Source: Candidatus Thiosymbion ectosymbiont of Catanema sp. Cochon2018
Lineage (GTDB): Bacteria > Pseudomonadota > Gammaproteobacteria > Chromatiales > Chromatiaceae
DNA: 64,000 nucleotides
NCBI GenBank assembly: GCA_011392765.1
Contig: WYCW01000004.1
Coordinates: 573,846 to 637,845, forward strand
Direction: 5' to 3'
Program-made: the position numbers and the translations under genes
Notes under the pieces: model-generated
Told to the model about the DNA's origin: nothing
Database searches by the model: none
What the model saw: the letters and a program-made list of their open reading frames with translations, nothing else
In this document: one piece after another, positions 1,545-48,610 of the stretch
Layout: every line of letters begins with the position of its first letter
How positions within the stretch are numbered: the first letter of the stretch is position 1

Positions 1545-1995
1545 TCTAGGATCCTTGAGGGACCCAAATCTTTACCAATGAGTCAAGTTTGTGCCGTGCA
1601 CAAATCGGGATCGGGATCGGGATCGGGATCGAAATCGAGATTCCGATTGCGATACCGATTTCGATTTCGATTTCGACCTACCTTAGCTCTTCAATGGCTG
1701 GTTGGGCGTAGGAGATGGGGCCTTACGGGAGAGGGATTTTTTGGGGCCTCATGCCTCGTCGGTCTGGGGTAAAGCCTCGCTAGGATTCCTTGACGGACCC
1801 GCATCTTTACAAATGAGTCAAGTTCTGCGGGCGCAGGGAACAGGAACCACGAAAGGCACGAAAAACACGAAAGGATACGAATCCACACGAATGAGAGTTC
1901 GTGTCCTTTCGTGCTTTTCGTGGTTTTTTTAGTTCCCGTACAAAAATTCACGCCTCGTCGGTCTGAGGCAGAGCCTCGCTAGGATTCGGAAAAGC
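1545..1995. repeat. Intergenic repeat cluster: box2(rc), GATCGG/GATTTCG word hairpin (1604-1677), box1+box2(rc) (1745-1835), CACGAA word hairpin (1845-1926), box1(rc) (1950-1990)
   Basis: Direct reading. Arms such as ccacgaaaggcacgaaaaacacgaaagg / cctttcgtgcttttcgtgg are reverse complements. The box sequences recur elsewhere in the window. Confidence 0.85.
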
Positions 1996-5991: not shown

Positions 5992-6064
5992 GAAGTGTGA
6001 AGTGTGAAGTGTGAAGTGTGAAGTGTGAAGTGTGAAGTGTGAAGTGTGAAGTGTGAAGTGTGAA
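5992..6064. repeat. Perfect heptanucleotide tandem repeat (GAAGTGT)n, ~10 copies
   Basis: Direct reading. It generates the artefactual ORF 5833..6147 (HFTLHTS repeats). Confidence 0.95.
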
Positions 6065-6275
6065 ATCGAAAGACAGTTAGCCGTTTGCGTGAAGTTTTTG
6101 AAAGCTAGACATGCCGGGTTACGCCGCATTCGACCTTGCCGGCACATATCAACCTTGCGGCACGCGCCTAACCCAGCCTACCGACTGTGAAAGAATTTAC
6201 CGGGAAACGAAGAACCACGAATGGACACGAATGAACACGAATATTGTCTGCTCCCACGGGTGCGGAAGATGCTCA

Positions 6276-7054: not shown

Positions 7055-7800
7055 TATTCTAGCGAGGCTTCGCCTCAGACCAACGAGACGTGAATTTTTG
7101 TACGGAAATCAAAAAACCACGAAAAGCACGAAAGGACACGAACCCTGAGGTATCCCCACATTATTGCTAGCTAAAACAACAAGTTCGCGTAGGTTGGGCA
7201 AAGCCGTAGGATGCGGTGAGCGCGGCAGGTCATTCAGGATGGCACCACAAGGAGGCGCGAACCGCATCAATGGACGCCCCGCCAGCGGCGAATCGCATCT
7301 TTGGATGGCCCGTGCCCAACACCCTGCTGGCCTGCGGAATTTAAACCACAGAGGACACCGAGAACACAGAGAAGAGAGTAGGCCAACTCTGTGTTCTCGG
7401 TGTCCTCTGTGGTTCAAAATCAAGCGGTGCACACAAAACTTGACCCATTTGTAAAGATTCGGGTCCCTCAAGGATCCTAGCGAGGCTTCGCCTCAGACCG
7501 ACGAGGCGTGAATTCTTTTTAACCACAGAGGACACAGAGCACACAGAGATGGAAATGCGATCAGCCCAAGTAGAATACGGTTGATTGATCAATTGCAATG
7601 TCCGCCGTCCGGTCGAGGGTGTTGAACGCGATCGCGTCTGATTCTCTGTGTACTCGGTGTTCTCTGTGGTGAATAAAGAGAGGTCGCAACGACTCGTACC
7701 CTGCGCGTGAGGCTTCGCCTTCAGACTGGTAAGGCATGAATTTTTTGTGCCGTGCAAAAACTCGACTCGTTTGTAAAGTTGCGGGTCCCTCAAGGATCCT
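7055..7800. repeat. Intergenic repeat cluster: box1, half CACGAA array, GTAGGTTGGGCAAAG REP (7189-7322), CACAGAG hairpin (7343-7413), box2+box1 (7427-7514), split CACAGAG hairpin (7521-7671), box1-like+box2 (7690-7800)
   Basis: Direct reading of inverted and direct repeats. All ORFs predicted here translate repeat words such as NHRGHREHR. Confidence 0.85.
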
Positions 7801-8245
7801 AGTTCTCTAAAACCTGAATCCGTGAGATAAAATCCAGGATTGGGGCTAACTCTATGATTTTAGCTGGATATTCAAAGATTGGCCTTTTCACCTGCTGGGT
7901 GAGTCCAAAAGTGAATGAAATTTTTCCGTTATCCTCTTGTTTTATAAAGAGATTATTCTATGAGCGGCTTATTTATCTCACGGATTCAGGTAAAAACCCT
8001 TCAACACGGCAACATTCTGGACAGCGATATGTCCTATACCCATTTCGATGCGAACCGGAGCCCCAAAGTAACATCCGAGATGGAGGATACCGGCATCTGC
8101 ATAAGGGGTATCCGTCTTTATTCCGCTCTCCCAGTATCTCTGAGCTTTTCTCATTGCTATCTCCCGACCAAGCTGAGCACGCCGGGTTACGGCGCGTTCG
8201 ACCTTACCGACACACAACAATATCGTAGCACGCGCCTAACCCGGC

Positions 8246-10276
8246 CTACGCTGCGATACCCGAATGCCGCAACAGGGCGTCGATGGCCGGCTTTCTCCCC
8301 CGGAAATCCACATAGAGGTCCATGGCATCGCGGGACCCGCCTTGTTCCAGAATGGTCTCGCGGAAGGCGAGTCCCGTATCCCGGTCGAAGAGGCCGCGTT
8401 CTTCGAACAGGGAGAAGGCGTCCGCGGACAACACCTCCGCCCACTTGTAGCTGTAATACCCCGCCCCATAGCCCCCGGAGAAGATATGGGAAAAACCGTG
8501 GGCAAAGCGGTTGAAGGCCGGCGGCTTCATTACTGCTACCTGATCGCGCACCTGATCGAGCAGCTCGTAAATACGCCCCCCACTTCGGGGGTCGTACTCC
8601 AGGTGCAGGCGGAAGTCGAAGACGGCAAACTCGAGCTGGCGTACCAACTGCATGGCGGACTGGAAGTTTTTTGCCGCCCGCAGGCGTCGGTACAGGGCCT
8701 CGGGGATCGGCTCCCCCGTATCCACGTGACCGGAGATCAGATCCAGGGACTCGGGTTCCCAGCACCAGTTTTCCAGAAATTGACTGGGCAGCTCCACCGC
8801 GTCCCAGGGCACACCGTTGATGCCCGCCACCGCCGGATAATCGACCCTGGTCAACAGATGCTGCAGGCCGTGGCCGAACTCGTGAAACAGGGTCTCGACC
8901 TCCTCGTGGGTGAGCAGGGACGGCCGCCCTCCCACCGGCGGGGTGAAGTTGCACACCAGATAGGTAACGGGGATCCGGTCGCAGCGGCTGGTGTGGAAGC
9001 GGTTCGTGCACACATCCATCCAGGCGCCCCCGCGCTTCTTTTGGCGGGCGAAGGGGTCGAGATAGAACTGACCCCGCAGCTTGCCGTCGGGGTCCCGGAT
9101 CTCGAAGAATCGCACGTCCGGATGCCAGGTCTCCGGGCCTTCCACCTCTTGTATGTGGATGTCAAACAGCCGTTCCACCACCGCGAACATGCCTGCAAGT
9201 ACGCGTGGAAGCGGGAAATAGGGGCGCAGCTCTTCCGCGGTGATCGCGTGTCGGTGCTCGCGCAACTTCTCCGAATAGTAGGCAAGGTCCCAGGATGCGA
9301 GGCGCTCGCATCCGTATTCCGCTTGCGCGAACTGCGCCAGCTCTTCCAGTTCCCGGCGGGCCTGGGTCACGGACCGTTCCGCAAGGTCGTTCAGAAATCC
9401 CATAACCTCTTCGGTGGAGCGGGCCATCTTGGTGGCCAAAGAGTGTTGGGCGTAATTTCCGAAGTCCAGCAGTGTCGACTGTTCATGACGCAGCGCGAGG
9501 ATGCGGTCCATGATCTCGGTATTGTCCCACTCGCCGGCGTGGGGTCCCTGATCCGAGGCCCGGGTACAGTAGGCTTGATAGACCTCACGGCGGAGTCCGC
9601 GATCGTCCGCATAGGTCATGACCGGGAGGTAAGAGGGTAAATCCAGGGTCAGGACCCAGCCCTCTTGTCCCCGGTCGGCGGCCGCCTGCTGCGCCAGGGC
9701 CAGTGCCGAAGCGGGCAGCCCGGCGAGGGCGGACCGGTCCGTGATTCGCTTGCTCCAGGCGTTGGTAGCATCGAGCAGGTTCTCCTCGTACCTGCTGGTA
9801 AGCTCGGCAAGCTCCCGGCTGATTTCCTTGTAGCGTGCCTGCCGGTCCGGTGCCAGGTCGACTCCGGCGAGGTGAAAGTCCCGCAGGGCGTTTTCCAACA
9901 GCTTGCGTTGAGAGGAGTTCAGGTGCCCCCGCTCGGTGACTGCCCTAAAACCCTCGAACAGGGCCCGGTTCTGGCCGACCTCGGTGGCATACTCGCTGAG
10001 TTTGGGCAGACAGGCGTTATAGGCGGGCCGCAGGGCGTCGTTGTTCATGACCGCGTTGAGGTGACTTACCGGCGACCAGGCCCGGTCGAGCCGGTCGTTG
10101 GCCTCTTCCAGGGGCTCGACAAAATTCTCCCAGGTGGGCGGGTCCGTGCGGTGCGTCAGCTCCTCGATCCGCGCCCGACACGCGGCGAGTAGGGAATCGA
10201 CGGCAGGCTCCACCTGCTCGGGACGGATATGGGAGAAGGGCGGAAGCCCGTCCGATTCGAGTAATGGGTTATCCAT
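8246..10276 (-). CDS. prlC: Oligopeptidase A (M3 family zinc metallopeptidase)
   Basis: 676 aa with the HEFGHGLQH zinc motif. The N-terminus MDNPLLESDGLPPFSHIRPEQVEPAV is typical of PrlC. Confidence 0.9.
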   Translation of the reverse strand: MDNPLLESDGLPPFSHIRPEQVEPAVDSLLAACRARIEELTHRTDPPTWENFVEPLEEANDRLDRAWSPVSHLNAVMNNDALRPAYNACLPKLSEYATEVGQNRALFEGFRAVTERGHLNSSQRKLLENALRDFHLAGVDLAPDRQARYKEISRELAELTSRYEENLLDATNAWSKRITDRSALAGLPASALALAQQAAADRGQEGWVLTLDLPSYLPVMTYADDRGLRREVYQAYCTRASDQGPHAGEWDNTEIMDRILALRHEQSTLLDFGNYAQHSLATKMARSTEEVMGFLNDLAERSVTQARRELEELAQFAQAEYGCERLASWDLAYYSEKLREHRHAITAEELRPYFPLPRVLAGMFAVVERLFDIHIQEVEGPETWHPDVRFFEIRDPDGKLRGQFYLDPFARQKKRGGAWMDVCTNRFHTSRCDRIPVTYLVCNFTPPVGGRPSLLTHEEVETLFHEFGHGLQHLLTRVDYPAVAGINGVPWDAVELPSQFLENWCWEPESLDLISGHVDTGEPIPEALYRRLRAAKNFQSAMQLVRQLEFAVFDFRLHLEYDPRSGGRIYELLDQVRDQVAVMKPPAFNRFAHGFSHIFSGGYGAGYYSYKWAEVLSADAFSLFEERGLFDRDTGLAFRETILEQGGSRDAMDLYVDFRGRKPAIDALLRHSGIAA

Positions 10277-10341: not shown

Positions 10342-10648
10342 CAAGTTCCTAGCGAGGCGTTGCCTCAGACCGACGAGGCGTGATCATCGCTCTCTCGCGA
10401 TCGAAAACGGAACCGTGATCGTAGTCGTAATCGGAGACGCAAGGCAAAGCGGGCATGGAAAACCTGATGTCTACGGGTTTCGACCCGGCACCTGGCCGGG
10501 ACCTCTGGATACCACGATCCGCGAAAGTATTCTGTCTCTCCTACGGCGGCTTCGATCACGATTACGATCACGATCACGACAACGAGAGAGGTTAGACGTT
10601 TGCGAAATTTGACTCATTTGCACAAAATCTGGTCATTCAAGGAATCCT
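10342..10648. repeat. box1 - GATCG-word inverted arms (10391-10434 / 10553-10590) around a ~118 bp loop - box2
   Basis: ctagcgaggcgttgcctcagaccgacgaggcgtga at the left, tttgactcatttgcacaaaatctggtcattcaaggaatccta at the right, with complementary arms between them. Confidence 0.75.
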
Positions 10649-10785
10649 AATGCAGAGAAAGCCGATCTGCCTGGTGGCCTGCCTGCGGCAGCAGGCAGAA
10701 AACACCTTCCTCGCCGCTCCAACGGGTAGGATAGGCAAAAATGATAGCATTGTGGGTGTCCAGCACCTTACACCGAGGAATCACC

Positions 10786-11328: not shown

Positions 11329-11428
11329 GTGCAATGTGCATCACGGGTGCAGCCAGGTAGGTTGGGCAAAGGTGCGCCGCCTCGGCGGTGCCCGTGCCCA
11401 ACATTGGGTCCGGCTTGCCTAGATTGAT

Positions 11429-16936: not shown

Positions 16937-17148
16937 CGCTCTAGGATTCCTTGACGGACCCGCATCTTTACAACTGAGTCAAGTTCTGCGGGCGCGGAGA
17001 ACAGGGTCCACGAAAGACACGAAAAGCACGAAGGGATACGAATTCATACGAATGAGGGTTCGTGTCTTTTCGTGCTTTTCGTAGACTTCTGGTTTCCGTA
17101 CAAAAATTCACGCCTCGTCGGTCTGAGGCAAAGCCTCCTAGAGACTGT
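16937..17148. repeat. box2(rc) - CACGAA word hairpin (17007-17083) - box1(rc)
   Basis: Same modules as 1745-1990, read directly. Confidence 0.85.
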
Positions 17149-17181: not shown

Positions 17182-20100
17182 TCAGGCTTCCGTTTCCGAC
17201 TGCTCCAGCATTGGCCCGAGGATGCGCCTAGCCGTCTGCTCGAATTCCTCACCGATGGGCTCGTGGCCGCGGAAGGCGATGCGCACCGCAACTTGGTCTC
17301 GCTCCGGCGCGGGATTGTAGCGCCCAGACCAGGCGTGGTCGAAGCCGCTACCGTAGCCGTTCTCCATCCAGGCCAGGGAGCTCTCAGGGAAGAAGACCAG
17401 AGGTCTCTTGAGACCTTCTCGGCGCAGCTCGAGCAGATCCGCGAGTAGGCCTTCTGCGTCGGCAACCGGCGCCAGACGTAAGCTCCGGTCCTTGGCAACG
17501 AAGGTACTGGCCGGTTCGATCCCCTTTGGGGCCAAAAGATTCAGCACCAAATGGTGCGCCCAGGTCCTTAATCGGTCCTTGGCGCTGAGCTTGCCGAAGC
17601 GATAGTCGATCAGTCCCCTGGCATGCAGGTTCCCCAACCGCCCCTGCAGGCGAAAGCCCGCCAGGGACAGGTCCACCTCGACGGGCTCGGCCTCCGCCAC
17701 CAGGCAGTCTTGCAGCCGCTGGACGAAGGATTCCGCTGCTTCCAATTGCTCGTCGAGGAGCAGCTCACCGGGGGCGCCGTGGGGCAGGCTTCCTGCGCCG
17801 CGCAGACGGGCCAGAATCGAAGATCGCCCCCGCCCCTCCAACAGGCCATGCAGCAGCGATTGATCGAGTCGATAGCGTTCCAGTCCTGCCGCGTCGAAGA
17901 GCTCGGTGTCCTCCGGGATCTCGGCCTCTTCGGACAGACTCAGCCCGAGGCGTTCGGTGAGGAAGTACCAGGTCGGATTGCGTAAAAAACGGATCAGGTC
18001 TTCGATCTCGAGGGTCCTGAACGCTTCTCCCGGCTCCGGGAGCGCAGTGTCGCAGAAGGGTGTCAACTTCGCCTCGACCTGGGTCCGGGCCGCGTCCAGC
18101 CAGGTCCGCGCATAGCTGAACAGGCGTTCGTCGTCCGGGTCGAAATAGCGGCGGCTGAAGGGTTGCAGGGGATGGCGCACGATCAGCTGTTCGGCCGGGT
18201 CCGTGCCGTCGGGGAGTCGGTAGCCCCGACGCAGGTAGTCGAGCAGCTCGTCGATCACGACGGAGGGCATTTTGGGGCTGTTGTCGCGCTCGTCGTTGCC
18301 GACCCAGCTCAGGTAAAGGACGTCGCGGGCCGAGAGCAGGGCCTCAAGGAACAGGTAGCGGTCGTCCCGGCGGCGGGAGCGATCGCCGCGCCGCGGGTGG
18401 CGGGTCATGAGGTCGAAGGACAGGGGCCGCTGAGTACGCGGGAAGTCGGCCCCGTTCATGCCGATCAGGCAGACGACCCGGAACGGGATGCTGCGCATGG
18501 GCACCATGTTGCAGAAGTTGACTCGCCCGGTCAGGAAGCTGTGGGCGCCGCGGCCACTATCCATCAGATCCCGGAACAGGGTGCGCGGTACGTCCAAGGC
18601 GACGGCTCGGTCGAATCCGGCGGCCTGGGCCCGGGCCACCGTTTCGTCGAATTCGTCGCGTACCAATTGCAGCAGGGCCTCCTCCTCATCGTCGGGGGCG
18701 AAGAAGGCCGCCAGCAGCTCGCTCAGGGTGGTGCGCCAACCGGCCAGGCTCCGTGGAACCGTCAGTCGCCTGCGCCAGATGCCGAGGATCTCGACCAAGG
18801 CCGCCAGTTGCCCGAGATAGGCCACCTCGCCACCCTCCAGGTCCGGGTAGGGCAAGACCCCCGCGTAGGGCTCGTCATCCGTAGCGGGTGGCAGCGCGTA
18901 GCCGAGAAACAGGCGTTTCAGGCCGAAGGCCCAGGTGTTGGCCGGCTCGTCCGGCAGCCCCAGGTCGGCGCGCATGGCCCCGTCTTGTCCCCAGCGCACC
19001 CCGCTCTCCCGCACCCAGGTGCGGATCCGTTCCACGCCCTCGTCATCGAGATCAAAGCGCCGGCGGAGCGGGACGACTTCGAGCAGGGATAAGAGCTCGC
19101 CGGCCTCGAAGCGGCTGCTCGGCAGCGCGAGCAGGCGTTTTAAGGCATCCAACACCGGGCGCTCGCCGGCAATCCGCCGATCGGCAATGGACCAGGGGAT
19201 GCGGGTGGGTACATCCGCAGCACCGAACACCGCCTCCACGTAGGGGGCGTACCGGTCGATGTCCGGCGCCATGACGATGATGTCCCGCGGTTCCAGGTCG
19301 TCGAGCCGCTCGAACAGGTGCAGCAGGCGGTCGTGCAGGACCTGGATCTCGCGCAGTGGACCGTGGGTGCTGTGGAATTGCAGCGATCGATCGTCGGGGG
19401 CGATGACCTGCGGCTCCAACCCGCGCGGATCGACCAGCTCCAGCAGATCCCGCTGCACCCGTTGCAATAGGCCATCGCCGCGCGGGGATACGAAGCGGTC
19501 ATGGTCCAGGCCACCGAGCTCGAGGAGCTGATCGAGAAATACCTGCCCGGCGTGGCCGAGGGAGGCCAGCAGCGGATTGCCCAGGTCCAGGAGTCCGGTC
19601 GGGTCCGGTCTGCCGGCTCGCTGGGCCCGGGCCCGCCGCCGCGCCTGGCCGCGCTCGTCTACCAGGTCGGACCAGTACTCACGACAGGGATTGAGGAAGA
19701 ACAGGTAGACCGGAATCCGGCTCGCCAAGGCGCCGAGCATCCGCAAATAAACGGGTGCCAGTGCGCTCAACCCGAACAGACATACCCGCTCCGGTAAGGT
19801 GTCGGCAGCGGGTCCACCCCGCACCATCGCCGATTCCAGCTCGGCCAGCAGCTGCGCCCGATGGACCTGGTCATTATCCGCGCTCAGGGCACGCCAGAGT
19901 TCGGCCTGCCAATGCTCGTCTTCTCTCTGCTCCCAGCCCAGGACCAGATCCGGCCGAAAGACCAGGTATTGATCGAACAGGTCCGCGATGCGTTGGGCAA
20001 GCCGATACAGCTTCAGCCCCGAGGCATCGTCGGCAAGATAGCGAGCGAGGGAAGCGAATTCCGGCCGTTCGAGCAGATCCGGCAGCTGCTGACACACCCG

Positions 20101-20412
20101 CCACAGCAGAAAGCCCTGGTCGAACCGGGTCGCGTCCGGTGTTTCCGGCAGCCAAGCCTGCAACACCCGCCACAAGAAGCCCGCCGGCAGCGGAAAGTCC
20201 AACCGGGCGCTGATGCCGTTGTGCTGCGCCAACTGCTGGGCGATCCAGCGGGCCATGCCCTGGTTTTGGACGACGATGGTCTCGGGCCGGAAGGGATCGG
20301 CCGGCGAAACTGCGGTGATCCGCGCCAGCTCTTCGACCAGCACCTCCAACCGGTTGCCGTGGTAGACCTGGAGCATATCCCCTATCGCGGTAGTCCCTAA
20401 ATGGTATGTCAT
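17182..20412 (-). CDS. recC: Exodeoxyribonuclease V gamma subunit RecC
   Basis: ~1070 aa with MLQVYHGNRLEVLVEEL...ETIVVQNQGMARWI, typical of the RecC N-terminus. The true start may be the internal ATG at 20376. Confidence 0.9.
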   Translation of the reverse strand: MTYHLGTTAIGDMLQVYHGNRLEVLVEELARITAVSPADPFRPETIVVQNQGMARWIAQQLAQHNGISARLDFPLPAGFLWRVLQAWLPETPDATRFDQGFLLWRVCQQLPDLLERPEFASLARYLADDASGLKLYRLAQRIADLFDQYLVFRPDLVLGWEQREDEHWQAELWRALSADNDQVHRAQLLAELESAMVRGGPAADTLPERVCLFGLSALAPVYLRMLGALASRIPVYLFFLNPCREYWSDLVDERGQARRRARAQRAGRPDPTGLLDLGNPLLASLGHAGQVFLDQLLELGGLDHDRFVSPRGDGLLQRVQRDLLELVDPRGLEPQVIAPDDRSLQFHSTHGPLREIQVLHDRLLHLFERLDDLEPRDIIVMAPDIDRYAPYVEAVFGAADVPTRIPWSIADRRIAGERPVLDALKRLLALPSSRFEAGELLSLLEVVPLRRRFDLDDEGVERIRTWVRESGVRWGQDGAMRADLGLPDEPANTWAFGLKRLFLGYALPPATDDEPYAGVLPYPDLEGGEVAYLGQLAALVEILGIWRRRLTVPRSLAGWRTTLSELLAAFFAPDDEEEALLQLVRDEFDETVARAQAAGFDRAVALDVPRTLFRDLMDSGRGAHSFLTGRVNFCNMVPMRSIPFRVVCLIGMNGADFPRTQRPLSFDLMTRHPRRGDRSRRRDDRYLFLEALLSARDVLYLSWVGNDERDNSPKMPSVVIDELLDYLRRGYRLPDGTDPAEQLIVRHPLQPFSRRYFDPDDERLFSYARTWLDAARTQVEAKLTPFCDTALPEPGEAFRTLEIEDLIRFLRNPTWYFLTERLGLSLSEEAEIPEDTELFDAAGLERYRLDQSLLHGLLEGRGRSSILARLRGAGSLPHGAPGELLLDEQLEAAESFVQRLQDCLVAEAEPVEVDLSLAGFRLQGRLGNLHARGLIDYRFGKLSAKDRLRTWAHHLVLNLLAPKGIEPASTFVAKDRSLRLAPVADAEGLLADLLELRREGLKRPLVFFPESSLAWMENGYGSGFDHAWSGRYNPAPERDQVAVRIAFRGHEPIGEEFEQTARRILGPMLEQSETEA

Positions 20413-21133: not shown

Positions 21134-22022
21134 TTGGAGGTTCGCGGCGCGGACCTCACCGACCCGTCCACGCTGGTCGGCCGGCTCGCCGGGATCGAGT
21201 TTGTCTCCCACCTGGCGAGTTATGCGCCGGCGCCGCAAGAGATCGATGTCTACCAGGCGCCTGCCCATTGGCCTGTGACGGCGGAAGGTACCCGCAACCT
21301 CGTGGACGCGGCGCCGGCAGCCGGTGTTCGGCGGTCTGGTCTATCTGAGCAGCGTCAAGGTCATGGGGACAGCGATCGGTGCCGGCGGCGGACCAGTGGA
21401 CGAGGCAACGCCACCTGCGCCGGATACCCTGTACGGACACGCCAAACTGGCGGCGGAGCGCAGTGTCCTGGCGGCGGGCGAAGCGGGGGAGCTGCGGGTC
21501 TGTGTGTTACGCCCGCCGATGATCTATGGGATAACCGGAGCAGGCAACATCGCGCGTATGATCGACGCAGTGGCGCGGAATCGGTTCCCTCCCTGGCCGA
21601 AACTCGACCATCGGCGATCGTCCGTTCACGTGCTGGATCTTATCGCGGCCGCTTTTCTTGCGGCCACTCATCCACGGACAGGCGACCGCTCCTACCTGGT
21701 GACCGATGACCACGGCTATTCCACCCAGTGGCTGTATGAACGGATTCGAGTCGCCCTGGGCCGACCAGTGCCCGGATGGACAGTCCTCTACCGGGCCCTG
21801 GCGACCGCTGCTTATGGGGCCACCTGGTTGGAAAAATTATTTCGGCGGCGCATGTTCCTCAACCGCGAAGACTGGCGTAAGCTTACAGAGATCGCCTGGT
21901 TTTCCTCGGATTGGATCCGTACCGAACTGGGCTTTGAGCCGCACCACAGCCTGGAACAGGAAATACCTCGAATGGTCCGGGAATACCTGGATACCGCTCC
22001 TTCCGGAGACCGGCTTGATTAA
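21134..22022 (+). pseudogene. NAD-dependent epimerase/dehydratase lacking its N-terminal Rossmann GxxGxxG segment, with a +1 frameshift near 21337
   Basis: 21134 frame: VRGADLTDPSTLVGRLAGIEFVSHLAS...TAEGTRNLVDAAPAAGVRR. 21324 frame: LVYLSSVKVMG...DTLYGHAKLAAE (YxxxK). Removing one T in ggcggTctggtc restores GVRRLVYLSS. Confidence 0.75.
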
Positions 22023-22155
22023 CCACAGAGGCGCAGAGAACACAGAGAGTTTTTAATGAGACCTTAGCTGGATTGCAAGGATTGCTCGCTGCGCGCTGAT
22101 CGCAGAAACCTCCTTGTGATCGCTTTCTCTGTATCCTCAGCGCCTCTGCGGTTCA
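22021..22155. repeat. Split CACAGAG-word hairpin (arms 22021-22050 / 22120-22155) around a ~70 bp loop
   Basis: aaccacagaggcgcagagaacacagagag versus ctttctctgtatcctcagcgcctctgcggtt. Confidence 0.75.
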
Positions 22156-22215
22156 TCCTTCTTACGGATTCGGGTTTGCCGCTTACTCCATTTGCGTCCA
22201 AGGGGGAAGGTAGCT

Positions 22216-23789: not shown

Positions 23790-23904
23790 GATGTGGTGAG
23801 CGGTGGTCCCAGGGACCTGCTTGCGGCAGGCAGGCGGCGTGCCCGACATCCACATCTCGTTGAGCACGGGCACCGCTTAGGCGGTGCGCCTTTGCCCAAC
23901 CTAC
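23786..23904. repeat. REP-like element bounded by GTAGGATGTGGTGAGCGG ... GCGCCTTTGCCCAACCTAC
   Basis: Related copies lie at 7189-7322, 11357-11404 and 26848-26891, with fragments near 12690 and 42960. Each contains the GTTGGGCA/TGCCCAAC inverted pair. Confidence 0.75.
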
Positions 23905-24022
23905 CGCTGGAGGCAACCTGTTAAGCGAAAAGAAATCCATACGTGCTCGCCCTGTTTGCCGTGTCGCACACCTTCCTATGACTTCGGACGCATGACCATC
24001 CATAAAACCGCCGTAACCTCCG

Positions 24023-24598
24023 ATGGCATCTGAGCGCGCGTCGCCTCCCGACAAGGGCGCCGCCCTGCGCTCGTTGATTGCCGCCCTGGAGGCAGTCGGC
24101 GACCGGACCGGGCACGTCGTCTCCTGGCTTTCCTTCTTCATGGTGCTGGTCTCGTTCCTGGTAGTAGTGCTGCGCTACGCCTTCGATCTGGGCTGGATCG
24201 CCATGCAGGAGTCGGTGACCTATATGCACGCCGCCCTGTTCATGCTCGGGGCGGCCTACACCCTGCGGCACAACGGCCATGTGCGGGTAGACATCCTCTA
24301 CCAGAGGCTATCCCGGCGGGGGCGCGCCTGGGTGGACCTCCTGGGTACGCTCCTGCTCTTGCTGCCGGTGTGCGTCTTTATCGCCTGGATCGGTTGGGAC
24401 TATGTACTGGAGTCCTGGGAGGTCCTGGAGGGCTCGCGGGAGGCGGGGGGCATTCCCGGCGTTTATCTGCTCAAGACCCTGCTTATTATCATGCCGGTGC
24501 TGGTGCTGATTCAGGGATTGGCCTGGATCCTGCGCACCGGCCTCTTTCTGGCCGGCGTCGAGGGTGCCCTGCCGGTGGATGAGGGCGGCAATGCTTGA
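24023..24598 (+). CDS. TRAP transporter small permease (DctQ-type)
   Basis: 191 aa with four predicted TM segments. It overlaps the following large permease by ATGCTTGA. Confidence 0.85.
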   Translation: MASERASPPDKGAALRSLIAALEAVGDRTGHVVSWLSFFMVLVSFLVVVLRYAFDLGWIAMQESVTYMHAALFMLGAAYTLRHNGHVRVDILYQRLSRRGRAWVDLLGTLLLLLPVCVFIAWIGWDYVLESWEVLEGSREAGGIPGVYLLKTLLIIMPVLVLIQGLAWILRTGLFLAGVEGALPVDEGGNA

Positions 24599-25973
24599 GC
24601 TCATGCCCCTGTTTCTATTCCTGGGGGTAGGCCTGGTGCTCCTGGCCGGCTACCCGGTGGCACTATCCCTGGGCGGAACGGCGCTGGCCTTCGCTTTTCT
24701 CGGAGACTGGTTCGGGCTGTTCGATCCGGCGTTCATCGCCGCCCTGCCGAACCGTATCTACGGGGTCATGACCAACGAGACCCTGATCGCCGCGCCCCTG
24801 TTCGTGTTCATGGGCGTGATGCTGGAACGCTCGCAGGTGGCGGAGAGCCTGTTGGACACCATGGCCATGCTGTTCGGATCCCTGCGCGGCGGCCTGGGGA
24901 TCTCCGTGACCCTGGTGGGGATGCTGCTTGCGGCTAGTACCGGGATCGTCGGCGCGACCGTGGTGACCATGGGTCTGCTGTCCCTGCCCACTATGTTGCG
25001 GCGCGGCTACAACCCCGGAGTCGCCGCGGGTACTATCTGTGCCTCCGGGACCCTGGGCCAGATCATCCCGCCGTCCATCGTCCTAGTGCTGCTGGGCGAC
25101 GTACTCTCCTCCGCCTACCAACAGGCCCAACTCGATATGGGCCTGTTCGCCCCGGACACGGTGTCGGTGGGGGACCTGTTCGTCGGTGCCCTGATCCCCG
25201 GGTTGGTGCTGGTCCTGCTCTACCTGTTGTACCTGCTCGGGGTGGCCTGGGTGCGTCCCGAGGCCGTACCGGCCATCCCCGAATCCGAGCGGACGATCGC
25301 ACCGGGTCTGCTGTGGCGGCGGGTACTCCTGGCGCTCCTGCCCCCCCTGCTGCTGATCGTGGCGGTATTGGGCTCCATCCTCTGGGGCGTAGCCACGCCG
25401 ACGGAGGCGGCATCCGTAGGAGCGGTGGGGGCCATGCTGTTGGCCTGGTCGCGCCGCCGCCTCAACCTCCGGACCCTCCGGGAGGTGATGGCTCAGACCA
25501 CTAATGTCACCAGCATGGTCTTCCTCATCCTCATCGGCGCATCCCTGTTCTCCCTGGTGTTCCGCGGCTTCCAGGGTGACGAGTTGGTGACCGACCTCCT
25601 CAGCGGGCTGCCGGGCGGTACCCTGAGTGCCGTCGCCCTGGTGATGCTGGTGATGTTCCTGCTCGGGTTCATCCTCGATTTTATCGAGATCACCTTCGTC
25701 GTGGTCCCGATCGTGGGGCCGGCGCTGCTGGGTATGGGGTTGGACCCGGTGTGGCTGGGGGTGATGATCGCCATCAACCTGCAGACATCCTTCCTGACCC
25801 CGCCCTTCGGTTTCTCCCTGTTCTACCTGCGTGGGGTCGCGCCGCCGCAGGTCAGGACCGGCCACATCTACCGCGGCGTCATGCCCTTTATCCTCATTCA
25901 ATTGTTGATGCTGGGGGCACTGGCGCTGTGGCCGCAGATCGCGACCTGGCTGCCGGATCTGGTTTACGGCTAG
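24591..25973 (+). CDS. TRAP transporter large permease (DctM-type)
   Basis: ~460 aa polytopic protein. The start at 24591 (MLELMPLFLFLGV) overlaps the dctQ-type stop. Confidence 0.9.
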   Translation: MLELMPLFLFLGVGLVLLAGYPVALSLGGTALAFAFLGDWFGLFDPAFIAALPNRIYGVMTNETLIAAPLFVFMGVMLERSQVAESLLDTMAMLFGSLRGGLGISVTLVGMLLAASTGIVGATVVTMGLLSLPTMLRRGYNPGVAAGTICASGTLGQIIPPSIVLVLLGDVLSSAYQQAQLDMGLFAPDTVSVGDLFVGALIPGLVLVLLYLLYLLGVAWVRPEAVPAIPESERTIAPGLLWRRVLLALLPPLLLIVAVLGSILWGVATPTEAASVGAVGAMLLAWSRRRLNLRTLREVMAQTTNVTSMVFLILIGASLFSLVFRGFQGDELVTDLLSGLPGGTLSAVALVMLVMFLLGFILDFIEITFVVVPIVGPALLGMGLDPVWLGVMIAINLQTSFLTPPFGFSLFYLRGVAPPQVRTGHIYRGVMPFILIQLLMLGALALWPQIATWLPDLVYG

Positions 25974-26275
25974 CGGGGCTTTGCCTCAGACCGACGAGGC
26001 GTGACCAACCGCACCGAAGAACCACGGATAGACACGGATAAACACGGATCACAATCCGTGTTTATCCGTGTCTGCCTCCGTGGTTCAAAGGATTTGCGAT
26101 TCCTGCCCAACAAGAGGCAGAACTATTTTTGTGCAGCGCACAAACTTGACTCATTTGTGAAGATGCAGGTCCCTCAAGGAATCCTAGCGAGGCTTTGCCT
26201 CAGAGACTGTCTAAAAAGGGATCGTAGGCCGTAGGCTGGGTTGCGGCCAGGGACGGCCAAAACCCAGCAATAACC
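25970..26275. repeat. Composite: box1 (25970-26004) - CACGGAT word hairpin (26018-26086) - box2+partial box1 (26130-26203) - truncated inverted MITE-A fragment (26202-26275)
   Basis: Direct reading. The TAG stop of the DctM-type gene lies inside box1 (ggCTAGcgg). Confidence 0.85.
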
Positions 26276-26591: not shown

Positions 26592-26707
26592 AAGCAATAC
26601 GATTTTTGTCAACAGCGCACTTGAATAATCAGTGGGTTAGAGTCGCCTGATCGGTGAAAACGCCTATTTTTCAAGGTGCCAGGGACAGTGGCAACCGCCG
26701 TGGGCTA

Positions 26708-26790
26708 CATGGACTCAGTGGACCACGTGGACTGGGGGTCGCTGTATGCCCCCGAGTCCATGCAGTCCATACTGTCCATGTTGTCTATTG
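26708..26790. repeat. TGGAC-word hairpin
   Basis: catggactcagtggaccacgtggac ... gtccatgcagtccatactgtccatg. Confidence 0.8.
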
Positions 26791-28967: not shown

Positions 28968-29104
28968 CAATGCCATTAAGTTAGCTGTTGGCCACTTAGA
29001 GAAAACTACGAATCACGCGAATTTTCGCGAATCGATTCGCGAGGATTCGCGTGATTCGTAGTTTCTTCTCTTACTTTGCCGACCGGTGACGCTTAACTTA
29101 TTGG
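28968..29104. mobile_element. MITE-like element family B (termini CAATGCCATTAAGTTA; palindromic ACGAATCACGCGAAT core), copy 1, right end degenerate
   Basis: Reverse complement of the copies at 30055-30207 and 42798-42949. Confidence 0.7.
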
Positions 29105-30066: not shown

Positions 30067-30207
30067 GTTAAGCGTTATCGGTCGGCAAACTAAGAGAAGA
30101 AACTACGAATCACGCGAATCCTCGCGAATCGATTCGCGGAAATTCGCGTGATTCGTAGTTTTCTCTTCCGCATCGGTAAGTGGCCAACAGCTAACTTAAG
30201 GGCATTG
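30055..30207. mobile_element. MITE-like element family B, copy 2
   Basis: caatgctattaagtta ... ctaacttaagggcattg termini, with the central palindrome acgaatcacgcgaatcctcgcgaatcgattcgcggaaattcgcgtgattcgt. Confidence 0.8.
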
Positions 30208-31362: not shown

Positions 31363-31431
31363 AGAACCACGGATAGACACGGATAAACACGGATTGTGAT
31401 CTGTGTTTATCCGTGTCTATCCGTGGTTCTT
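31363..31431. repeat. CACGGAT-word hairpin (second copy)
   Basis: gaaccacggatagacacggataaacacggat tgtgat ctgtgtttatccgtgtctatccgtggttc. Confidence 0.9.
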
Positions 31432-31485
31432 CGGCGCGGTTCGTTCCGGTACAAGTCCAATTAACAAATGGCTTTAGGATTTCTA

Positions 31486-33510: not shown

Positions 33511-33712
33511 GTCTCACCGGGGCGGTCTGCCTGACACCGGATCAGGCCGGCGGTGCATTGGTTTTCGATTCAGTCCGATTGTCTCCCTTTATCGATTGGT
33601 AGTCGATTCTTGCCGCACCGTACGGGAGCCGGCGCACGCATATTCGCTCTCCATGGACGCTACGGCTCGACTCGACTCGAGTTTCGGCGCGATGCTAATA
33701 GGAAACCTTTTT

Positions 33713-33785
33713 AATCCGCAGATTACGCAGATTTCCACAGATTATTTCGTTCTTAATCTGCGGAAATCTGCGCAATCTGTGGATA
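33713..33785. repeat. CGCAGATT-word hairpin
   Basis: aatccgcagattacgcagatttccacagatt ... aatctgcggaaatctgcgcaatctgtggat. Confidence 0.85.
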
Positions 33786-33832
33786 AAGAAAGTCCGGTCC
33801 TCCAAACTGCGCCAAATCATTCAGGATTGCTT

Positions 33833-37652: not shown

Positions 37653-40508
37653 ATGTCCCGTTACGCCGTCGGTATCGATCTTGGAACCACCCACACGGTC
37701 GTCGCCTATGCCGACGAGGAGGCGCCCCAAGCACCGCTCCAGGTCTTCCCGATCGACCAATTGGTGGCCCCCGGGGAGGTCGCGGCACGTCCCCTGCTCA
37801 CCTCCATGCGCTACCATCCGGCCGACGGCGAGTTGGCCGACGAAGACCGTATCCTCCCCTGGCAATTGGCCGCGGCTGCCGATGCCGGCGGGGAAGTGGA
37901 AGAAACGGGAGCAGTGGAAAAAACGGGGGCAGTGAAAAAAGCGATCATCGGCGCGCTCGCACGGGAGTTGGGGTCCAAGGTCCCCGGACGGCTGGTCACC
38001 AGCGCCAAAAGCTGGCTCTCGCACCCCGGCGTCGACCGTACCGCGGCCATCCTGCCCTGGGGGGCCGCGCCGGAGGTCCCGCAGGTTTCGCCCCTGGACG
38101 CCAGTGCCGGCTATCTGAGCCACGTCCGTCGGGCCTGGAATCATCGCTTTCCGAACGACCCCCTCGAACACCAGGACATCGTCCTCACGGTCCCCGCCTC
38201 GTTCGACGAGGTCGCCCGGCGGCTCACGGTGGAGGCCGCCCGGCGCGGCGGTCTGCCGCGGGTCCGGTTGGTGGAGGAGCCCCAGGCCGCCTGCTACGAT
38301 TGGCTCGCCCGCCACGCCGAGACACTCGGGCAGGCCCTCTCCGGCGTCCGTACCCTGCTGATCTGCGATGTCGGCGGCGGCACCACCGACCTGACCCTGA
38401 TCCGCGTAGAGCACGCTGACGGCCACCCCCGCTTGGTGCGTATCGGCGTCGGCGAGCACCTGATGCTGGGGGGCGACAATATGGACCTGGCCCTGGCCCA
38501 CATCGCCGAGCGACGATTGGTGGAAGCCGGCGGCCGACTCGGTGCCGCGCAGCTCTCGCAGCTGGTGCAGCAGTGTCGTAACGCCAAGGAGCGGTTACTT
38601 GCACATCAGGCCCCCAAGACCGCATCCGTTACTCTGGTGGGAACGGGCGCGCGCCTGATCGGTCAGGCCCGCTCGACGGAGCTCGGCCGCGATGAGGTCC
38701 AAGAGCTGATCGTCGACGGCTTCTTTCCGCGCACGGCTCCCGACGAACGCCCCCGGTCCAGGCGGGCAGCCCTCGTGGAGTTCGGGCTCCCCTATGCCGC
38801 CGACCCGGCCATTACTCGCCACCTGGCCGCCTTTCTGGCGGATCACGCGGCGGACCTGGCGGCGGGGAGCCATAGCCCGGCTACCCCCGGTGCCGTACCG
38901 GTGCCTGACGCGGTGCTGCTGAACGGCGGTGTATTTCGCAGCGCGGTCCTCGTAGAAAGACTCTTCGAGATCCTGGGTACCTGGCGGGGCGAGCCCCCAC
39001 GGGCGCTATCCAACGACCACCCCGACCTGGCGGTTGCCCGCGGCGCCGTGGCTTACGCCCTGGCCAGACAGGGGCGCGGTGCGCGCATCGGCGGCGGCTC
39101 GGCGCGCAGCTATTTCCTGATGATCGAGGAGGCAATGCGGGATACGCAACGCGCGGTCTGCCTGCTGCCGCGCGGATCGGAAGAGGGCCGGGAGTTGCGC
39201 CTGACCGAACGCCGGTTCTCGTTACGCCTGGGCCAACCGGTGCGCTTCGGCCTCCTCGCCGCCACCGGTGACCGATGCTCCTTGCCCGGTGAGCTGGTCG
39301 AGGTCGATCGCGAACGGTTTCGACCGCTGCCCCCGCTGGCCACCGTCCTCGACGGCCCGGCGGATGCGGACGTGGGAGACGCCCGCGAGGTCCCGGTCCA
39401 GCTGGCGGCCATGCTCACGGACATCGGCACGTTGGAAATCGACTGTGTTGCAACCGATGCGGCCCCGGCTGACCTCAAACGGCGGTGGCGCCTGGAGTTT
39501 CAGCTCCGCGGCCAGGGGGAGAAGGCGGCCGCGGCTATACCCGCGGAGTTTCCCGCGGGTTTCTCTCAGGCGGTGGAACGGATCGAACGGGTCTATGGGA
39601 GCCGGATCGCGGGCGTCGGGCCCAAGGAAGCCAAAACGCTGCAGCGGGACCTGGAAAAGCTCCTCGGCCGCCGCGACACCTGGGAGATTCCGGTGCTGCG
39701 CGAGCTCTTCGGTGTCCTCTGGGACGGCGTCAAACGCCGGCGGCGCAGCGCCGATCATGAGCGCTTGTGGTTCAATCTGGCCGGCTTTTGCTTGCGCCCC
39801 GGCTACGGCTATCCACTCGATGACTGGCGCCTCCGACAGCTCCGGACCCTCTATGAGCAGGGAGTCCAATACCAGGACGAAGCGCGTAACCAGGCCGAAT
39901 GGTGGACCCTGTGGCGGCGTGTCGGCGGCGGCCTGGATCAGGCCCGGCAGCTGCGCATCTTCGGGGACATCGAGGGCCACCTCCACAAGCCCGGCGGCCG
40001 CAGTGGAAAAAGTGAAAAAAGTGGAAAAAGCGCGCAGACGCCGGCCTATGACGCCCTGATCCAGTTAGTGGCGGGCCTCGAACGACTGCCCCCCGAGCAC
40101 AAGGCGCGGCTCGGCGAGTTGCTGTTGCAGGCGGGGCGGAGACCCACCGATGCGACCCGGCGCTGGTGGGCCCTGGGACGTCTGGGGGCGCGGGTCCCCT
40201 TTTACGGCAGCGTGCACCAGGTAGTACCGCGTTCTCTCGCCGAGGCCTGGCTCGAACAGCTGTTCGGCCTCGACTGGCGGGCCGTGGCACCGGCGGCATT
40301 CGCGGCCACCCAGCTGGCGCGGATGAGTGGAGACCGCGAGCGGGACCTGGATTCGGCGGTGCGCGAACGGGTCGTCGTACGCCTGCGCAAAGAGAAGGCC
40401 CCTCAAAGATGGATCGCCATGGTGCAGGCGGTTACCGAGCTCGATGCCTCGGAGGAGGCGCTCATCTTCGGCGAATCCCTGCCCCCCGGCCTGCGGTTGG
40501 TCGGCTGA
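37653..40508 (+). CDS. Large Hsp70/actin-fold ATPase-like protein (~950 aa) with a ~400 aa uncharacterised C-terminal region
   Basis: Phosphate-1 motif YAVGIDLGTTHTVVA and phosphate-2 LICDVGGGTTDLTLI. The C-terminal half has no motif I recognise. The start at 37653 is preferred because upstream codons lie in the repeat. Confidence 0.8.
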   Translation: MSRYAVGIDLGTTHTVVAYADEEAPQAPLQVFPIDQLVAPGEVAARPLLTSMRYHPADGELADEDRILPWQLAAAADAGGEVEETGAVEKTGAVKKAIIGALARELGSKVPGRLVTSAKSWLSHPGVDRTAAILPWGAAPEVPQVSPLDASAGYLSHVRRAWNHRFPNDPLEHQDIVLTVPASFDEVARRLTVEAARRGGLPRVRLVEEPQAACYDWLARHAETLGQALSGVRTLLICDVGGGTTDLTLIRVEHADGHPRLVRIGVGEHLMLGGDNMDLALAHIAERRLVEAGGRLGAAQLSQLVQQCRNAKERLLAHQAPKTASVTLVGTGARLIGQARSTELGRDEVQELIVDGFFPRTAPDERPRSRRAALVEFGLPYAADPAITRHLAAFLADHAADLAAGSHSPATPGAVPVPDAVLLNGGVFRSAVLVERLFEILGTWRGEPPRALSNDHPDLAVARGAVAYALARQGRGARIGGGSARSYFLMIEEAMRDTQRAVCLLPRGSEEGRELRLTERRFSLRLGQPVRFGLLAATGDRCSLPGELVEVDRERFRPLPPLATVLDGPADADVGDAREVPVQLAAMLTDIGTLEIDCVATDAAPADLKRRWRLEFQLRGQGEKAAAAIPAEFPAGFSQAVERIERVYGSRIAGVGPKEAKTLQRDLEKLLGRRDTWEIPVLRELFGVLWDGVKRRRRSADHERLWFNLAGFCLRPGYGYPLDDWRLRQLRTLYEQGVQYQDEARNQAEWWTLWRRVGGGLDQARQLRIFGDIEGHLHKPGGRSGKSEKSGKSAQTPAYDALIQLVAGLERLPPEHKARLGELLLQAGRRPTDATRRWWALGRLGARVPFYGSVHQVVPRSLAEAWLEQLFGLDWRAVAPAAFAATQLARMSGDRERDLDSAVRERVVVRLRKEKAPQRWIAMVQAVTELDASEEALIFGESLPPGLRLVG

Positions 40509-40651
40509 GAGGCTGTCTAAAAACTAACACATTGATTTAAAAATGAAAAATTCTTCGTGTCTTCGTGACTTTGTGTGAGAAATGAAGAACATCACACAAA
40601 GGCACAAAGCTACAAAGGGGTACTAAGAGACTGTCTTTTTAGACAGGCTCT
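40507..40651. mobile_element. MITE-A variant: same termini, different core carrying a TTCGTG/CACAAAG word hairpin
   Basis: gagaggctgtctaaaaactaacacattgattt ... tttttagacaggctc. The left terminus abuts the Hsp70-like TGA. Confidence 0.65.
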
Positions 40652-42797: not shown

Positions 42798-42949
42798 CAA
42801 TGCCATTAAGTTAAGCGTTGCCAGTCGGCAAACCAGAGGAAAAACTACGAATCACGCGAATCCTCGCGAATCGATTCGCGGAAATTCGCGTGATTCGTAG
42901 TTTTCTCTTCCGCATCGGTCAGCAACCAGCGACTAACTTAATGGCATTG
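42798..42949. mobile_element. MITE-like element family B, copy 3
   Basis: caatgccattaagtta ... taacttaatggcattg, nearly identical to 30055-30207. Confidence 0.85.
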
Positions 42950-43072
42950 GGTTAAACGCGCCGTGCGATGCGGGCCTGGGCAACCGCGAGGCTGAACGCG
43001 CCGTAACTCGACATCCAAGGATAACCCGCAGCGTCCTGTGCCCGGTACGGGGGTATCGCAAAAGTCCTTTCG

Positions 43073-43142
43073 AACCACAGAGGACACAGAGAACATAGAG
43101 AAAGGCACAGACCAATTCTCTGCGTTCTCTGTGTCCTCTGTG
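43073..43142. repeat. CACAGAG-word hairpin
   Basis: aaccacagaggacacagagaacatagag ... ctctgcgttctctgtgtcctctgtga. Confidence 0.85.
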
Positions 43143-43165
43143 ATTTGAACTTCACAGACTGATAG

Positions 43166-47905: not shown

Positions 47906-48610
47906 ATGAGTGGACGGAATGGACAGGATGGACAAAGTGGACGGGGAATGAGAGGTAAACCGACCGAGGGACTGATTCCCAGGCACGGCGGCTACCGCAA
48001 GCTGAAGAGCTTTCAAATCGCGCAATTGGTCTATGACGTGACGGTGCGGTTTTGTGACCGCTATATCAATAAACGCAGCCGTACCCACGACCAGATGGTG
48101 CAGGCGGCACGCTCGGGGGTACAAAACATCGCGGAGGGCAGCAAGGCCTCGGGTACATCCAAAAAGACCGAACTGAAGCTGACCAATGTGGCGCGGGCAA
48201 GCCTCGAAGAATTACGCCTGGATTATGAGGATTTTCTCCGACAACGGTGCTTGCCGCAGTGGGAGCGAGAGGACCCGCGCTGGGCGGAGCTCATCAATCG
48301 GCGGTGTTCTACTGCCGATGAGGTGGCACAGTGGATACGAGAGGTCCATGATGGAAATGGACAAAGTGGACAATATGGACAAGGTGGACAAAATGGACCG
48401 TCCATGAAGTCCACGCTGTCCATTCCGTCCACTCAGTCCACCAAGTCCACTTATCCCGAAATAGCCGCCAATGCCGCACTGGTCCTGATCGCCGTGGCGT
48501 GCAGCCTGCTCGACCGTCAGCTTGCCGCTCAGGCCGACGCCTTCGAGGCAGAAGGTGGGTTTACCGAACGCCTTTATAAAAGACGGACCCAGGCGCGGAG
48601 GAGACAATGA
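47906..48610 (+). CDS. Four-helix-bundle protein (23S rRNA intervening-sequence protein family) with C-terminal 'suffix' region; carries an in-frame TGGAC-word hairpin insertion
   Basis: YRKLKSFQIAQLVYDVTVRFCDRYI...THDQMVQAARSGVQNIAEGS is typical of the family. The start is ATG 47906 or 47948. The insertion lies at 48350-48450. Confidence 0.75.
   Translation: MSGRNGQDGQSGRGMRGKPTEGLIPRHGGYRKLKSFQIAQLVYDVTVRFCDRYINKRSRTHDQMVQAARSGVQNIAEGSKASGTSKKTELKLTNVARASLEELRLDYEDFLRQRCLPQWEREDPRWAELINRRCSTADEVAQWIREVHDGNGQSGQYGQGGQNGPSMKSTLSIPSTQSTKSTYPEIAANAALVLIAVACSLLDRQLAAQADAFEAEGGFTERLYKRRTQARRRQ

Follow-up and report, generated by a model that had tools for sequence, protein, structure and literature searches.

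The two conserved sequences that recur next to word hairpins in this DNA are very probably the ends of a transposable element, box1 being its left terminus and box2 its right terminus, and the copies found here are then MITE-like, non-coding versions of that element with internal deletions. The DNA analysed, referred to below as the window, is a stretch of 64,000 nucleotides from a Candidatus Thiosymbion ectosymbiont of Catanema sp. The parent element is ∼1.9 kb long, contains one ORF of 534 aa, and is present in at least ten phyla. Box1 matches the last ∼35 nt at its left end, and box2 the last ∼46 nt at its right. An earlier note on the same DNA had suggested a mobile cassette whose core can be exchanged between conserved flanks, and this was essentially right: the composite moves together with its cargo, and the boxes appear as the termini of a coding element. 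The note had also stated that its reading would fail if the boxes proved to be pieces of a known insertion sequence (IS) or prophage; this applies by half, as they do seem to be IS termini, but of a family that is unnamed in the libraries searched. Non-autonomous IS derivatives are known as such; what is unnamed in Pfam, NCBIfam, PGAP and the literature searched is the parent family. A pattern of two boxes and a hairpin becomes a mobile element with exact boundaries, which aids the annotation and assembly of repeat-rich Thiosymbion genomes.

The recurrence of both boxes is real, and the coordinates first given for them were correct within a few bases, by consensus and by profile. The box1 consensus, searched with up to three mismatches, matched six times (1749-1783 and 1948-1982 on the minus strand; 7059-7093, 7477-7511, 10349-10383 and 25970-26004 on the plus strand), and 100 shuffles of the sequence gave 0 matches. 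The literal box2 consensus has a single match with up to three mismatches (7429-7480), because small indels separate the box2 copies. Profiles made from the window copies and searched with nhmmer recovered every copy of either box over the span 1546-26204, nine of box1 and seven of box2, the latter with E-values of 1e-19 to 5e-14 (Table 1). The same profiles found no copies past 26.3 kb of the 64 kb window. The chance expectation is that the window holds no copies of box1 or box2 at all. Upstream of each box2, at 60-370 nt, lies a box1 in the same orientation.

Table 1. Box copies and units in the window (minus-strand box positions are marked; CTAG denotes the boundary tetranucleotide).
Feature	Position	Strand	Components and remarks
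Box1, nhmmer	1985-1942(-), 1786-1749(-), 7056-7099, 7474-7516, 10346-10388, 17143-17103(-), 25969-26008		
Box1, truncated, nhmmer	26181-26204		
Box1, degenerate, nhmmer	7709-7744		Overlooked in the earlier note
Box2, nhmmer	1838-1780(-), 1604-1546(-), 7425-7480, 7744-7802, 10592-10649, 17000-16941(-), 26127-26187		
U1a	1780..1982	-	CTAG-box1 1982-1948; CACGAAA word hairpin 1939-1840; box2 1838-1780; right CTAG 1783-1780 common to U1b
U1b	1546..1783	-	Head-to-tail with U1a; box1 1783-1749; TCGAAATCG-type hairpin cargo; box2 1604-1546; terminal CTAG 1549-1546
U2a	7059..7480	+	Box1 7059-7093; half CACGAAA hairpin; REP-like insert; CACAGAG hairpin 7337-7421; box2 7425-7480; right CTAG 7477-7480 common to next box1
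Left end without box2 of its own	7477..7699	+	Box1 7477-7511; large-loop CACAGAG hairpin 7516-7676; runs into next unit
Cargo-less minimal unit	7700..7802	+	Degenerate box1 7709-7744; box2 7744-7802; terminal CTAG 7799-7802
U3	10349..10649	+	Box1 10349-10383; large-loop GATCGTGATCG-type hairpin 10395-10579; box2 10592-10649; end is CTAA
U4	16941..17141	-	Box1 17141-17105; CACGAAA hairpin 17082-17019; box2 17000-16941
U5	25970..26186	+	Box1 25970-26004; CACGGAT hairpin 26018-26090; box2 26127-26186
Truncated third-party box1	26183..26203	+	CTAGCGAGGCTTTGCCTCAGA; CTAG in common with U5

The repeating unit is CTAG-box1-(cargo)-box2-CTAG, and not box2+box1. Seven units of 103-422 nt, all non-coding, lie in intergenic DNA of the window. 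The ∼90-bp box2+box1 module, initially taken for the unit, is the joint of two head-to-tail units with one CTAG. Fusion of box2 and box1 through a common CTAG was itself confirmed, since a single CTAG belongs to two adjoining units at 1780-1783, 7477-7480 and 26183-26186. The proposed order of box1, hairpin and box2 is kept in all units, except that the hairpin is missing at 7709-7802, where box1 leads directly into box2 (GCATGAATTTTTTGTGCCGTGCAAAAACTCGAC); the hairpin is therefore optional. Box1 also runs straight into box2 (...GGCGTGAATTTTTTGTGCAGTGCAAAAACTTGAC...) in a Ca. Thiosymbion oneisti locus (L008, 4555-4660), and from these two cargo-less copies the minimal unit is CTAG-box1-box2-CTAG, ∼100 nt in length. 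Variable material is found invariably between GGCGTGA and (A)TTTTTGTGC.

The hairpins can be separated from the boxes, to which the earlier note had tied them. Cargo is absent not only from 7709-7802 and L008 but also from 21 of the 73 paired units in a metagenome sample of 120 loci, and at least nine word hairpins of the window lie outside any unit. Seven hairpins fall within the ∼1 kb of unit interior, a strong enrichment inside units. The word hairpins are dispensable passengers, independent small repeats that are found elsewhere too.

It is very improbable that box2+box1 is a cis element selected by the host, whether as a small RNA, a cassette of terminator and promoter, or a protein-binding or processing site on either side of structured hairpins. 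The intergenic position of all units would suit such a role, as would the small hairpins inside the boxes and the placing of U4 and U5 just after stop codons (U4 begins 41 nt past the stop of a recC-like ORF, 17182-20412(-), and the left CTAG of U5 includes the TAG stop of ORF 24564-25973). However, the units lie in both orientations relative to the neighbouring genes, and the same sequences terminate a repeat that bears an ORF and is present in at least ten phyla. Minimal and fused units moreover fold like shuffles (z from -0.95 to +0.92), and Rfam covariance models at the gathering score gave 0 matches in the whole window. The RNA binding or processing site that had been proposed is unsupported by these folding scores and by Rfam, and structured RNA was rejected as a candidate with z near 0, no Rfam match and no tRNA or tmRNA. 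A promoter/terminator cassette was likewise rejected, with signals no higher than chance (0 promoter-like sites, and 1 terminator-like site versus 1.2 expected). The pneumococcal BOX (boxA-boxB(n)-boxC) and Neisseria Correia elements have conserved end modules, a variable middle, intergenic positions and many copies, as here. They differ in having complementary ends or inverted repeats, and they are not known to have a comparable linked autonomous element or any sequence relation to the boxes.

Copies outside the window speak for mobility. U3 (10349-10649) is 94% identical, cargo included, to positions 148-457 of a locus from Ca. Thiosymbion oneisti (L003) with different flanks, and U5 (25970-26186) is 91-94% identical to two further loci (L004 and L007). 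By comparison, the orthologous recC-like gene has only 85.7% DNA identity, and 84% protein identity, between the window and T. oneisti. Whole units with their cargo are found in unrelated flanks of another species, and the unit therefore moves as box1...box2. Tandem arrays are also present in L004 and L143. Other Thiosymbion genomes and 120 metagenome loci also have copies, in different flanks. Among contigs that, by accession series alone, appear to come from metagenomes of gutless-worm symbionts, the miniature element is abundant.

The link to a coding element came from box1. Its exact 22-mer occurs in Thiosymbion genomes and in Holophagales and Terriglobia MAGs, with a different sequence after it in the latter two. 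On the Bradyrhizobium plasmid pCB82_1, a degraded copy of ∼0.8 kb with box1 at its start splits a serine-recombinase gene. Protein remnants (...GRMTYDLRRLRLHGLIERIP..HRY.VT..G...) follow box1 in the Holophagales and Bradyrhizobium cases, and the remnant protein, used as a query, retrieved a very large family of proteins of 534 aa, all unnamed and mostly encoded on contigs of 1.8-2.5 kb. With phmmer against 1.84 billion representatives, clustered at 50% identity, the family comprises 11,059 clusters at E≤1e-3 and 1,351 at E≤1e-30.

Full-length copies have a constant layout of flank, CTA(A/G), box1, a leader of ∼110-150 nt, the ORF with its stop, the right end, and flank. The left end consists of a CG(A/G)GGC-loop-GCC(T/C)C hairpin followed by AG(A/C)CCGACGAG.C.TG, which is box1. 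Box1 is positioned 125-200 nt upstream of the ORF start in 52 of 80 genome loci encoding the ORF, and several contigs open exactly at it (left-end examples are L018 at 1261, L113, L104-111, L194 and L195). The right end consists of AAACTTGACTCA and ∼33 nt more, usually with a small GC hairpin, up to a terminal CTAG; this is the core of box2. AA(A/C)TTGACTC was seen at or shortly after the stop in every inspected ORF copy with downstream sequence. In copies reaching the terminus, CTAG or a YTA variant lies 45-46 nt from the start of the motif, the same spacing as in box2 of the window, and a metagenomic full-length copy (L303) contains the exact right-end 23-mer of the window, AAACTTGACTCATTTGTAAAGAT. 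From CTAACGGGG to GGTCCCTAG, five copies in one long-read MAG (L119-122 and L175) are identical, and beyond that span their sequences are unrelated; the boundaries of the element are therefore fixed. Across many phyla and unrelated contexts, the 534-aa ORF stands alone between the termini of complete copies. The hosts include Actinomycetota, Acidobacteriota, Gemmatimonadota, Planctomycetota, Alpha-, Beta- and Gammaproteobacteria, Myxococcota, Cyanobacteria, Spirochaetes, Armatimonadota and Desulfobacterota. An abundant single-gene element that spans phyla is exposed here, whose contigs typically break at the ends of the element.

The window copies are short, non-coding, present in multiple copies at non-homologous sites, and have termini in common with a coding element, as MITEs do. 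Terminal inverted repeats are absent, the left and right ends having only CTAG in common, and the copies are therefore MITE-like in logic rather than MITEs in the strict sense; an inverted-repeat MITE was rejected as a candidate, as the two ends do not match one another. The 534-aa ORF has no tblastn match in the window or in the Thiosymbion loci, and the window copies are therefore non-autonomous. No full-length copy from Thiosymbion was found in the loci or in two pattern-limited genome scans, which returned Chromatiales other than Thiosymbion, the Thiosymbion genomes being fragmented drafts. The window copies would need a 534-aa-type protein in trans, and they may be relics.

Each end of the element has a small hairpin, on the same strand. 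The left one (h1, GAGGC/GCCTC) is 98.7% paired over 60 sequences, with compensatory changes from A-U to G-C in 16 and from G-C to C-G in one; its variants are GGGGC/GCCCC in actinobacterial copies and GAGCC/GGCTC in L013. An alternative pairing within box1, of GCCTC with the second GAGGC as a possible switch, was rejected (it does not covary, and its 82% pairing equals that of shuffles). At the right end, the hairpin varies in sequence but not in position, examples being GCCGGC-TTC-GCCGGC, AAACGC-TTC-GCGTTT, CTTCGCTT-ATG-AAGCGAAG and, in Thiosymbion, GGGTCC-CTCAA-GGATCC. The boundary tetranucleotides fit YTAR, with CTAA (71), CTAG (69) and TTAG (6) on the left, and CTAG (86), CTAA (8) and TTAA (2) on the right.

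IS630 elements prefer CTAG and duplicate TA. Cut-and-paste with TA duplication is the main rival explanation: the element would be a DDE transposon of IS630/IS5 type with a CTAG target, and the miniatures ordinary MITEs. The target fits, as the flanking tetranucleotides conform to YTAR and a TA duplication within a CTAG-like target is compatible with every inspected copy, but the missing inverted repeats and the predicted fold of the protein do not. IS630/Tc1-mariner elements resemble the present one in their preference for CTAG/YTAR at the boundaries, and differ from it in their inverted repeats and DDE domain. The ends here are unrelated apart from CTAG, the ORF has no match to DDE or HTH_Tnp at E≤10, its predicted fold is TBP-like and not RNase-H, and a 4-bp target duplication was ruled out, the left tetranucleotide being CTAA versus CTAG on the right in five of five copies of one genome. 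Taken together, we regard the IS630/IS5 explanation as unlikely. No longer direct repeats flank the inspected copies. Two modes would account for the boundaries: duplication of TA inside a YTAR target, or insertion next to YTAR by an element that brings its own right CTAG. Empty sites were sought by joining the flanks of the Burkholderia YI23 and Caballeronia SBC2 copies and comparing them with all plasmids, which returned filled sites only; the joined flanks of 72 units, compared with every collected locus, returned no empty site. Synteny downstream of the recC-like gene is not conserved in T. oneisti, and this position therefore yields no empty site.

We infer that the 534-aa protein is the transposase. 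PGAP labels it "hypothetical protein" in complete Burkholderia, Caballeronia, Rhodococcus and Mycobacterium replicons, and the literature searched gave no description of the family. Searches of Pfam, NCBIfam and PDB, by sequence and by profile, returned only a weak winged helix, near residue 450. Even at E≤10 there was no Pfam or NCBIfam match to DDE, HTH_Tnp or Y1_Tnp/HUH, nor any match in these libraries to an HUH Y2 transposase; Rep_trans (PF02486) was likewise absent from the Pfam results at E≤10, and the PDB profile search returned no Rep protein.

Structure prediction was more informative. The first AF2 model, built on a shallow alignment, had a pLDDT of 67.8; a more diverse alignment gave a second, with a pLDDT of 87.3, which superseded it. 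In Foldseek, the top four PDB neighbours of the second model are chains A-D of 4cij, the Rep_trans rolling-circle initiator RepSTK1 (E 2e-3, probability 0.96-0.98, TM 0.33-0.35), and the 4cij chains are the best PDB neighbours of both models (E 1-3e-3, probability 0.96-0.99, TM ∼0.35). The core of the model has a TBP-like double beta-sheet and not an RNase-H fold; MarR-type winged helices match its C-terminus, and TBPs lead in the viral structure library. Over 69 full-length sequences, K324-x-Y326-x-K328 and R334-x-E336 are invariant, and in the model they lie on adjacent strands (321-328 and 332-339). In RepD, the catalytic Y191 is part of R189-x-Y191-x-K193, and R212-x-E214 is on the next strand (PMC4797284). 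The predicted arrangement of K-x-Y-x-K and R-x-E mirrors these catalytic residues, and it is a coherent lead rather than proof. The suggested link to Rep_trans is structural only, and weak.

A passenger or regulatory role for the 534-aa ORF, as a DNA-binding protein with a winged helix and with the mobilising enzyme encoded elsewhere, is quite improbable. In favour of such a role, the weak winged helix is the sole domain recognisable by sequence, and some copies adjoin IS110 or IS4 genes, yet the adjoining IS genes vary between places and complete copies hold this ORF alone. Its N-terminal 400 residues also contain at least 25 invariant polar and aromatic residues, K-x-Y-x-K and R-x-E among them.

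Several known systems resemble the element in part. The Rep_trans (PF02486)/MOB_T proteins (RepD, RepSTK1 4cij and Tn916 Orf20) include the best structural neighbour of the ORF model and have [KR]-x-Y-x-K followed by R-x-E on neighbouring strands, a separate C-terminal DNA-binding domain, and nick-site hairpins as substrates. Against this likeness, there is no sequence-profile match, the TM score is ∼0.35, and the element has no replicon features. To our knowledge, and in the literature searched, Rep_trans proteins are described for plasmid or phage replication or for ICE transfer, and not for IS movement. No enzyme of the type proposed for the transposase is known to mobilise insertion sequences.

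IS200/IS605 elements and their non-coding derivatives, the PATEs, likewise lack terminal inverted repeats, and their two ends differ. Also common to them and the present element are a small same-strand hairpin at both ends, a conserved tetranucleotide that marks the left boundary and the right tip, the lack of a visible target duplication (although TA may be duplicated in the present element), and miniatures consisting of the ends only. Unlike the present element, with its 534-aa protein of TBP/Rep_trans-like core and winged helix, IS200/IS605 employs a Y1 HUH transposase of ∼150 aa; there is no tnpB here, and no sequence relation. That the boxes are REP/BIME or IS200/IS605-derived palindromic elements moved by a Y1 HUH enzyme (RAYT/TnpA) is hardly credible. 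Such elements would account for the lack of inverted repeats, the small hairpins near both ends and the conserved boundary tetranucleotide, and REP-like GTAG...CTAC palindromes also occur in the window. However, box1 and box2 are not GTAG-headed REP-like palindromes, and their associated gene and autonomous partner is the 534-aa ORF, whose product has no Y1_Tnp/HUH signature and a different predicted fold. The IS91/ISCR elements share with the parent element asymmetric ends, a boundary tetranucleotide and a single large ORF, but are moved by an HUH Y2 transposase, of which there is no motif or Pfam match here. Left ends that lack a right end (7477-7699, L001, L005 and L006) recall the one-ended products of IS91-type elements.

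The mechanism that we put forward is plausible but tentative: a Rep_trans-like tyrosine nuclease of TBP fold with a C-terminal winged helix would recognise hairpins on one strand and cut at CTAG, in the style of IS200/IS605 or IS91 and with no target duplication. The winged helix would bind the ends of the element, the protein would recognise the terminal hairpins on one strand, and Y326 would cut at the CTAG sites. The element would then be transferred next to YTAR as single-stranded DNA or as a rolling-circle-like copy. Only the ends, of ∼35 nt and ∼46-60 nt, would be required, so that internal deletions would give miniature units and whatever is in the interior would be carried along. In the Thiosymbion lineage, word hairpins have probably filled the interior space, and whole composites were probably then copied to new sites. 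Whether or not TA is duplicated, the CTAG at the end of a resident copy is itself a YTAR-type target, which explains the tandem arrays: a new copy can land there, and a head-to-tail array with a single CTAG results.

A broader proposal, held somewhat more loosely than the mechanism, is that the parent element founds a new prokaryotic IS superfamily. Its enzyme would be a third, independent kind of single-strand or rolling-circle transposase, beside HUH Y1 (IS200/IS605) and HUH Y2 (IS91/ISCR and Helitrons), present in at least ten bacterial phyla, unseen by current annotation, and spawning miniatures that carry hairpins. If a Rep_trans-like nuclease is indeed the transposase, it would constitute a new enzymatic route to transposition. 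If true, the proposal also offers a sequence-defined substrate, the ends of ∼35 nt and ∼46 nt plus CTAG, that is directly testable in vitro.

Two minor observations concern aberrant forms of box1. A piece of an unrelated TIR-MITE (26191-26275) cuts the truncated copy at 26183-26203. Among the metagenome loci, about a third of the box2 copies are without a canonical box1, and many of these have a divergent box1 instead; in one sub-family the divergent box1 is preceded by AATCCTGTT words, resembling the degenerate copy at 7709-7744.

The ~1.9-kb full-length elements, of which box1 and box2 are the left and right termini, share a conserved structured leader. It contains a long-range stem of 12 bp (GGCTCCGGTCGA/TCGACCGGAGCC), and the GGAG upstream of the ATG of the 534-aa ORF is part of this stem. 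Compensatory changes are found in the two inner hairpins; 6 of the 28 pairs show covariation. This arrangement suggests that translation of the ORF is regulated. Miniature copies are devoid of it.

Element ends are duplicated or inverted at several loci. The 44-nt right end is tandemly duplicated in L150 (2191-2280; ...CTTCTAA|AACTTGACTCA...CTTCTAG), and in L143 (2242-2320) a second left end follows a full-length copy head-to-tail, with one CTAG common to both. A partial box1 in inverted orientation is found soon after the left end of some copies (454-480 in L148/L150, 422-444 in L192), and in L013 it lies at the far end (1200-1260); this gives a long hairpin or an inverted-repeat-like layout.

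One complete unit, box1-CACGAA hairpin-box2, is located at L014 9940-10134 (IMGVR_UViG_3300027557_000033), a contig that is viral by its IMG/VR class. At L016 3950-4080, a truncated 534-aa ORF copy has an IS110-type transposase N-terminus (HYCGVDLHARTLYLCILDQEG) fused just upstream. ORF 24564-25973 ends with a TAG stop that falls within the left CTAG (25970-25973) of the window unit U5. As a C in front of a TAG stop makes CTAG, units may land preferentially at gene ends.

Word hairpins, which are cargo in some units, also occur outside any box unit, and their arms consist of three words of 9-10 nt; examples are CACAGAG, CACGGAT, ACGAATCACGCGAA, ATCTGCG and GTGGACA. The left flank AACCGC.CCGAAG of the CACGGAT hairpin at 31363-31444 recurs at the hairpin within U5.

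A second MITE family, of the classical type and distinct from the box units, is also present in the window. Its fragment cuts off a box1 after GCCTCAGA, at 26191. An element of ~180 nt lies a few bases past the right CTAG of the head-to-tail box array. Two further types of short repeat are included in the table.

Structured leaders of full-length elements, and window repeats (window positions unless a locus is named)
Feature	Position	Strand	Sequence
Structured leader	L113 2855-3003; L104 129-276; L194 1845-2003; L195 1843-2003; L185; L114		
Word hairpins outside units	22017-22157; 26707-26781; 28998-29069; 30095-30166; 31363-31430; 33705-33793; 42841-42904; 43069-43149; 48364-48452		
Classical MITE	977-1122; 52289-52445; 40500-40650	-	inverted repeats AGAG(A/C)CTGTCTAAAAA...TTTTTAGACAGCC.CT; TTAG/TAAG flanks
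Classical MITE, fragment	26191-26275	+	
~180-nt element	7811-7990		inverted repeats AACCTGAATCCGTGAGATAAA / TTTATCTCACGGATTCAGGT
REP-like palindromes	11356-11402; 23859-23905; 6102-6181; 8170-8249		GC-rich; heads GTAGG...CCTAC
Heptamer tandem array	5992-6068		GAAGTGT
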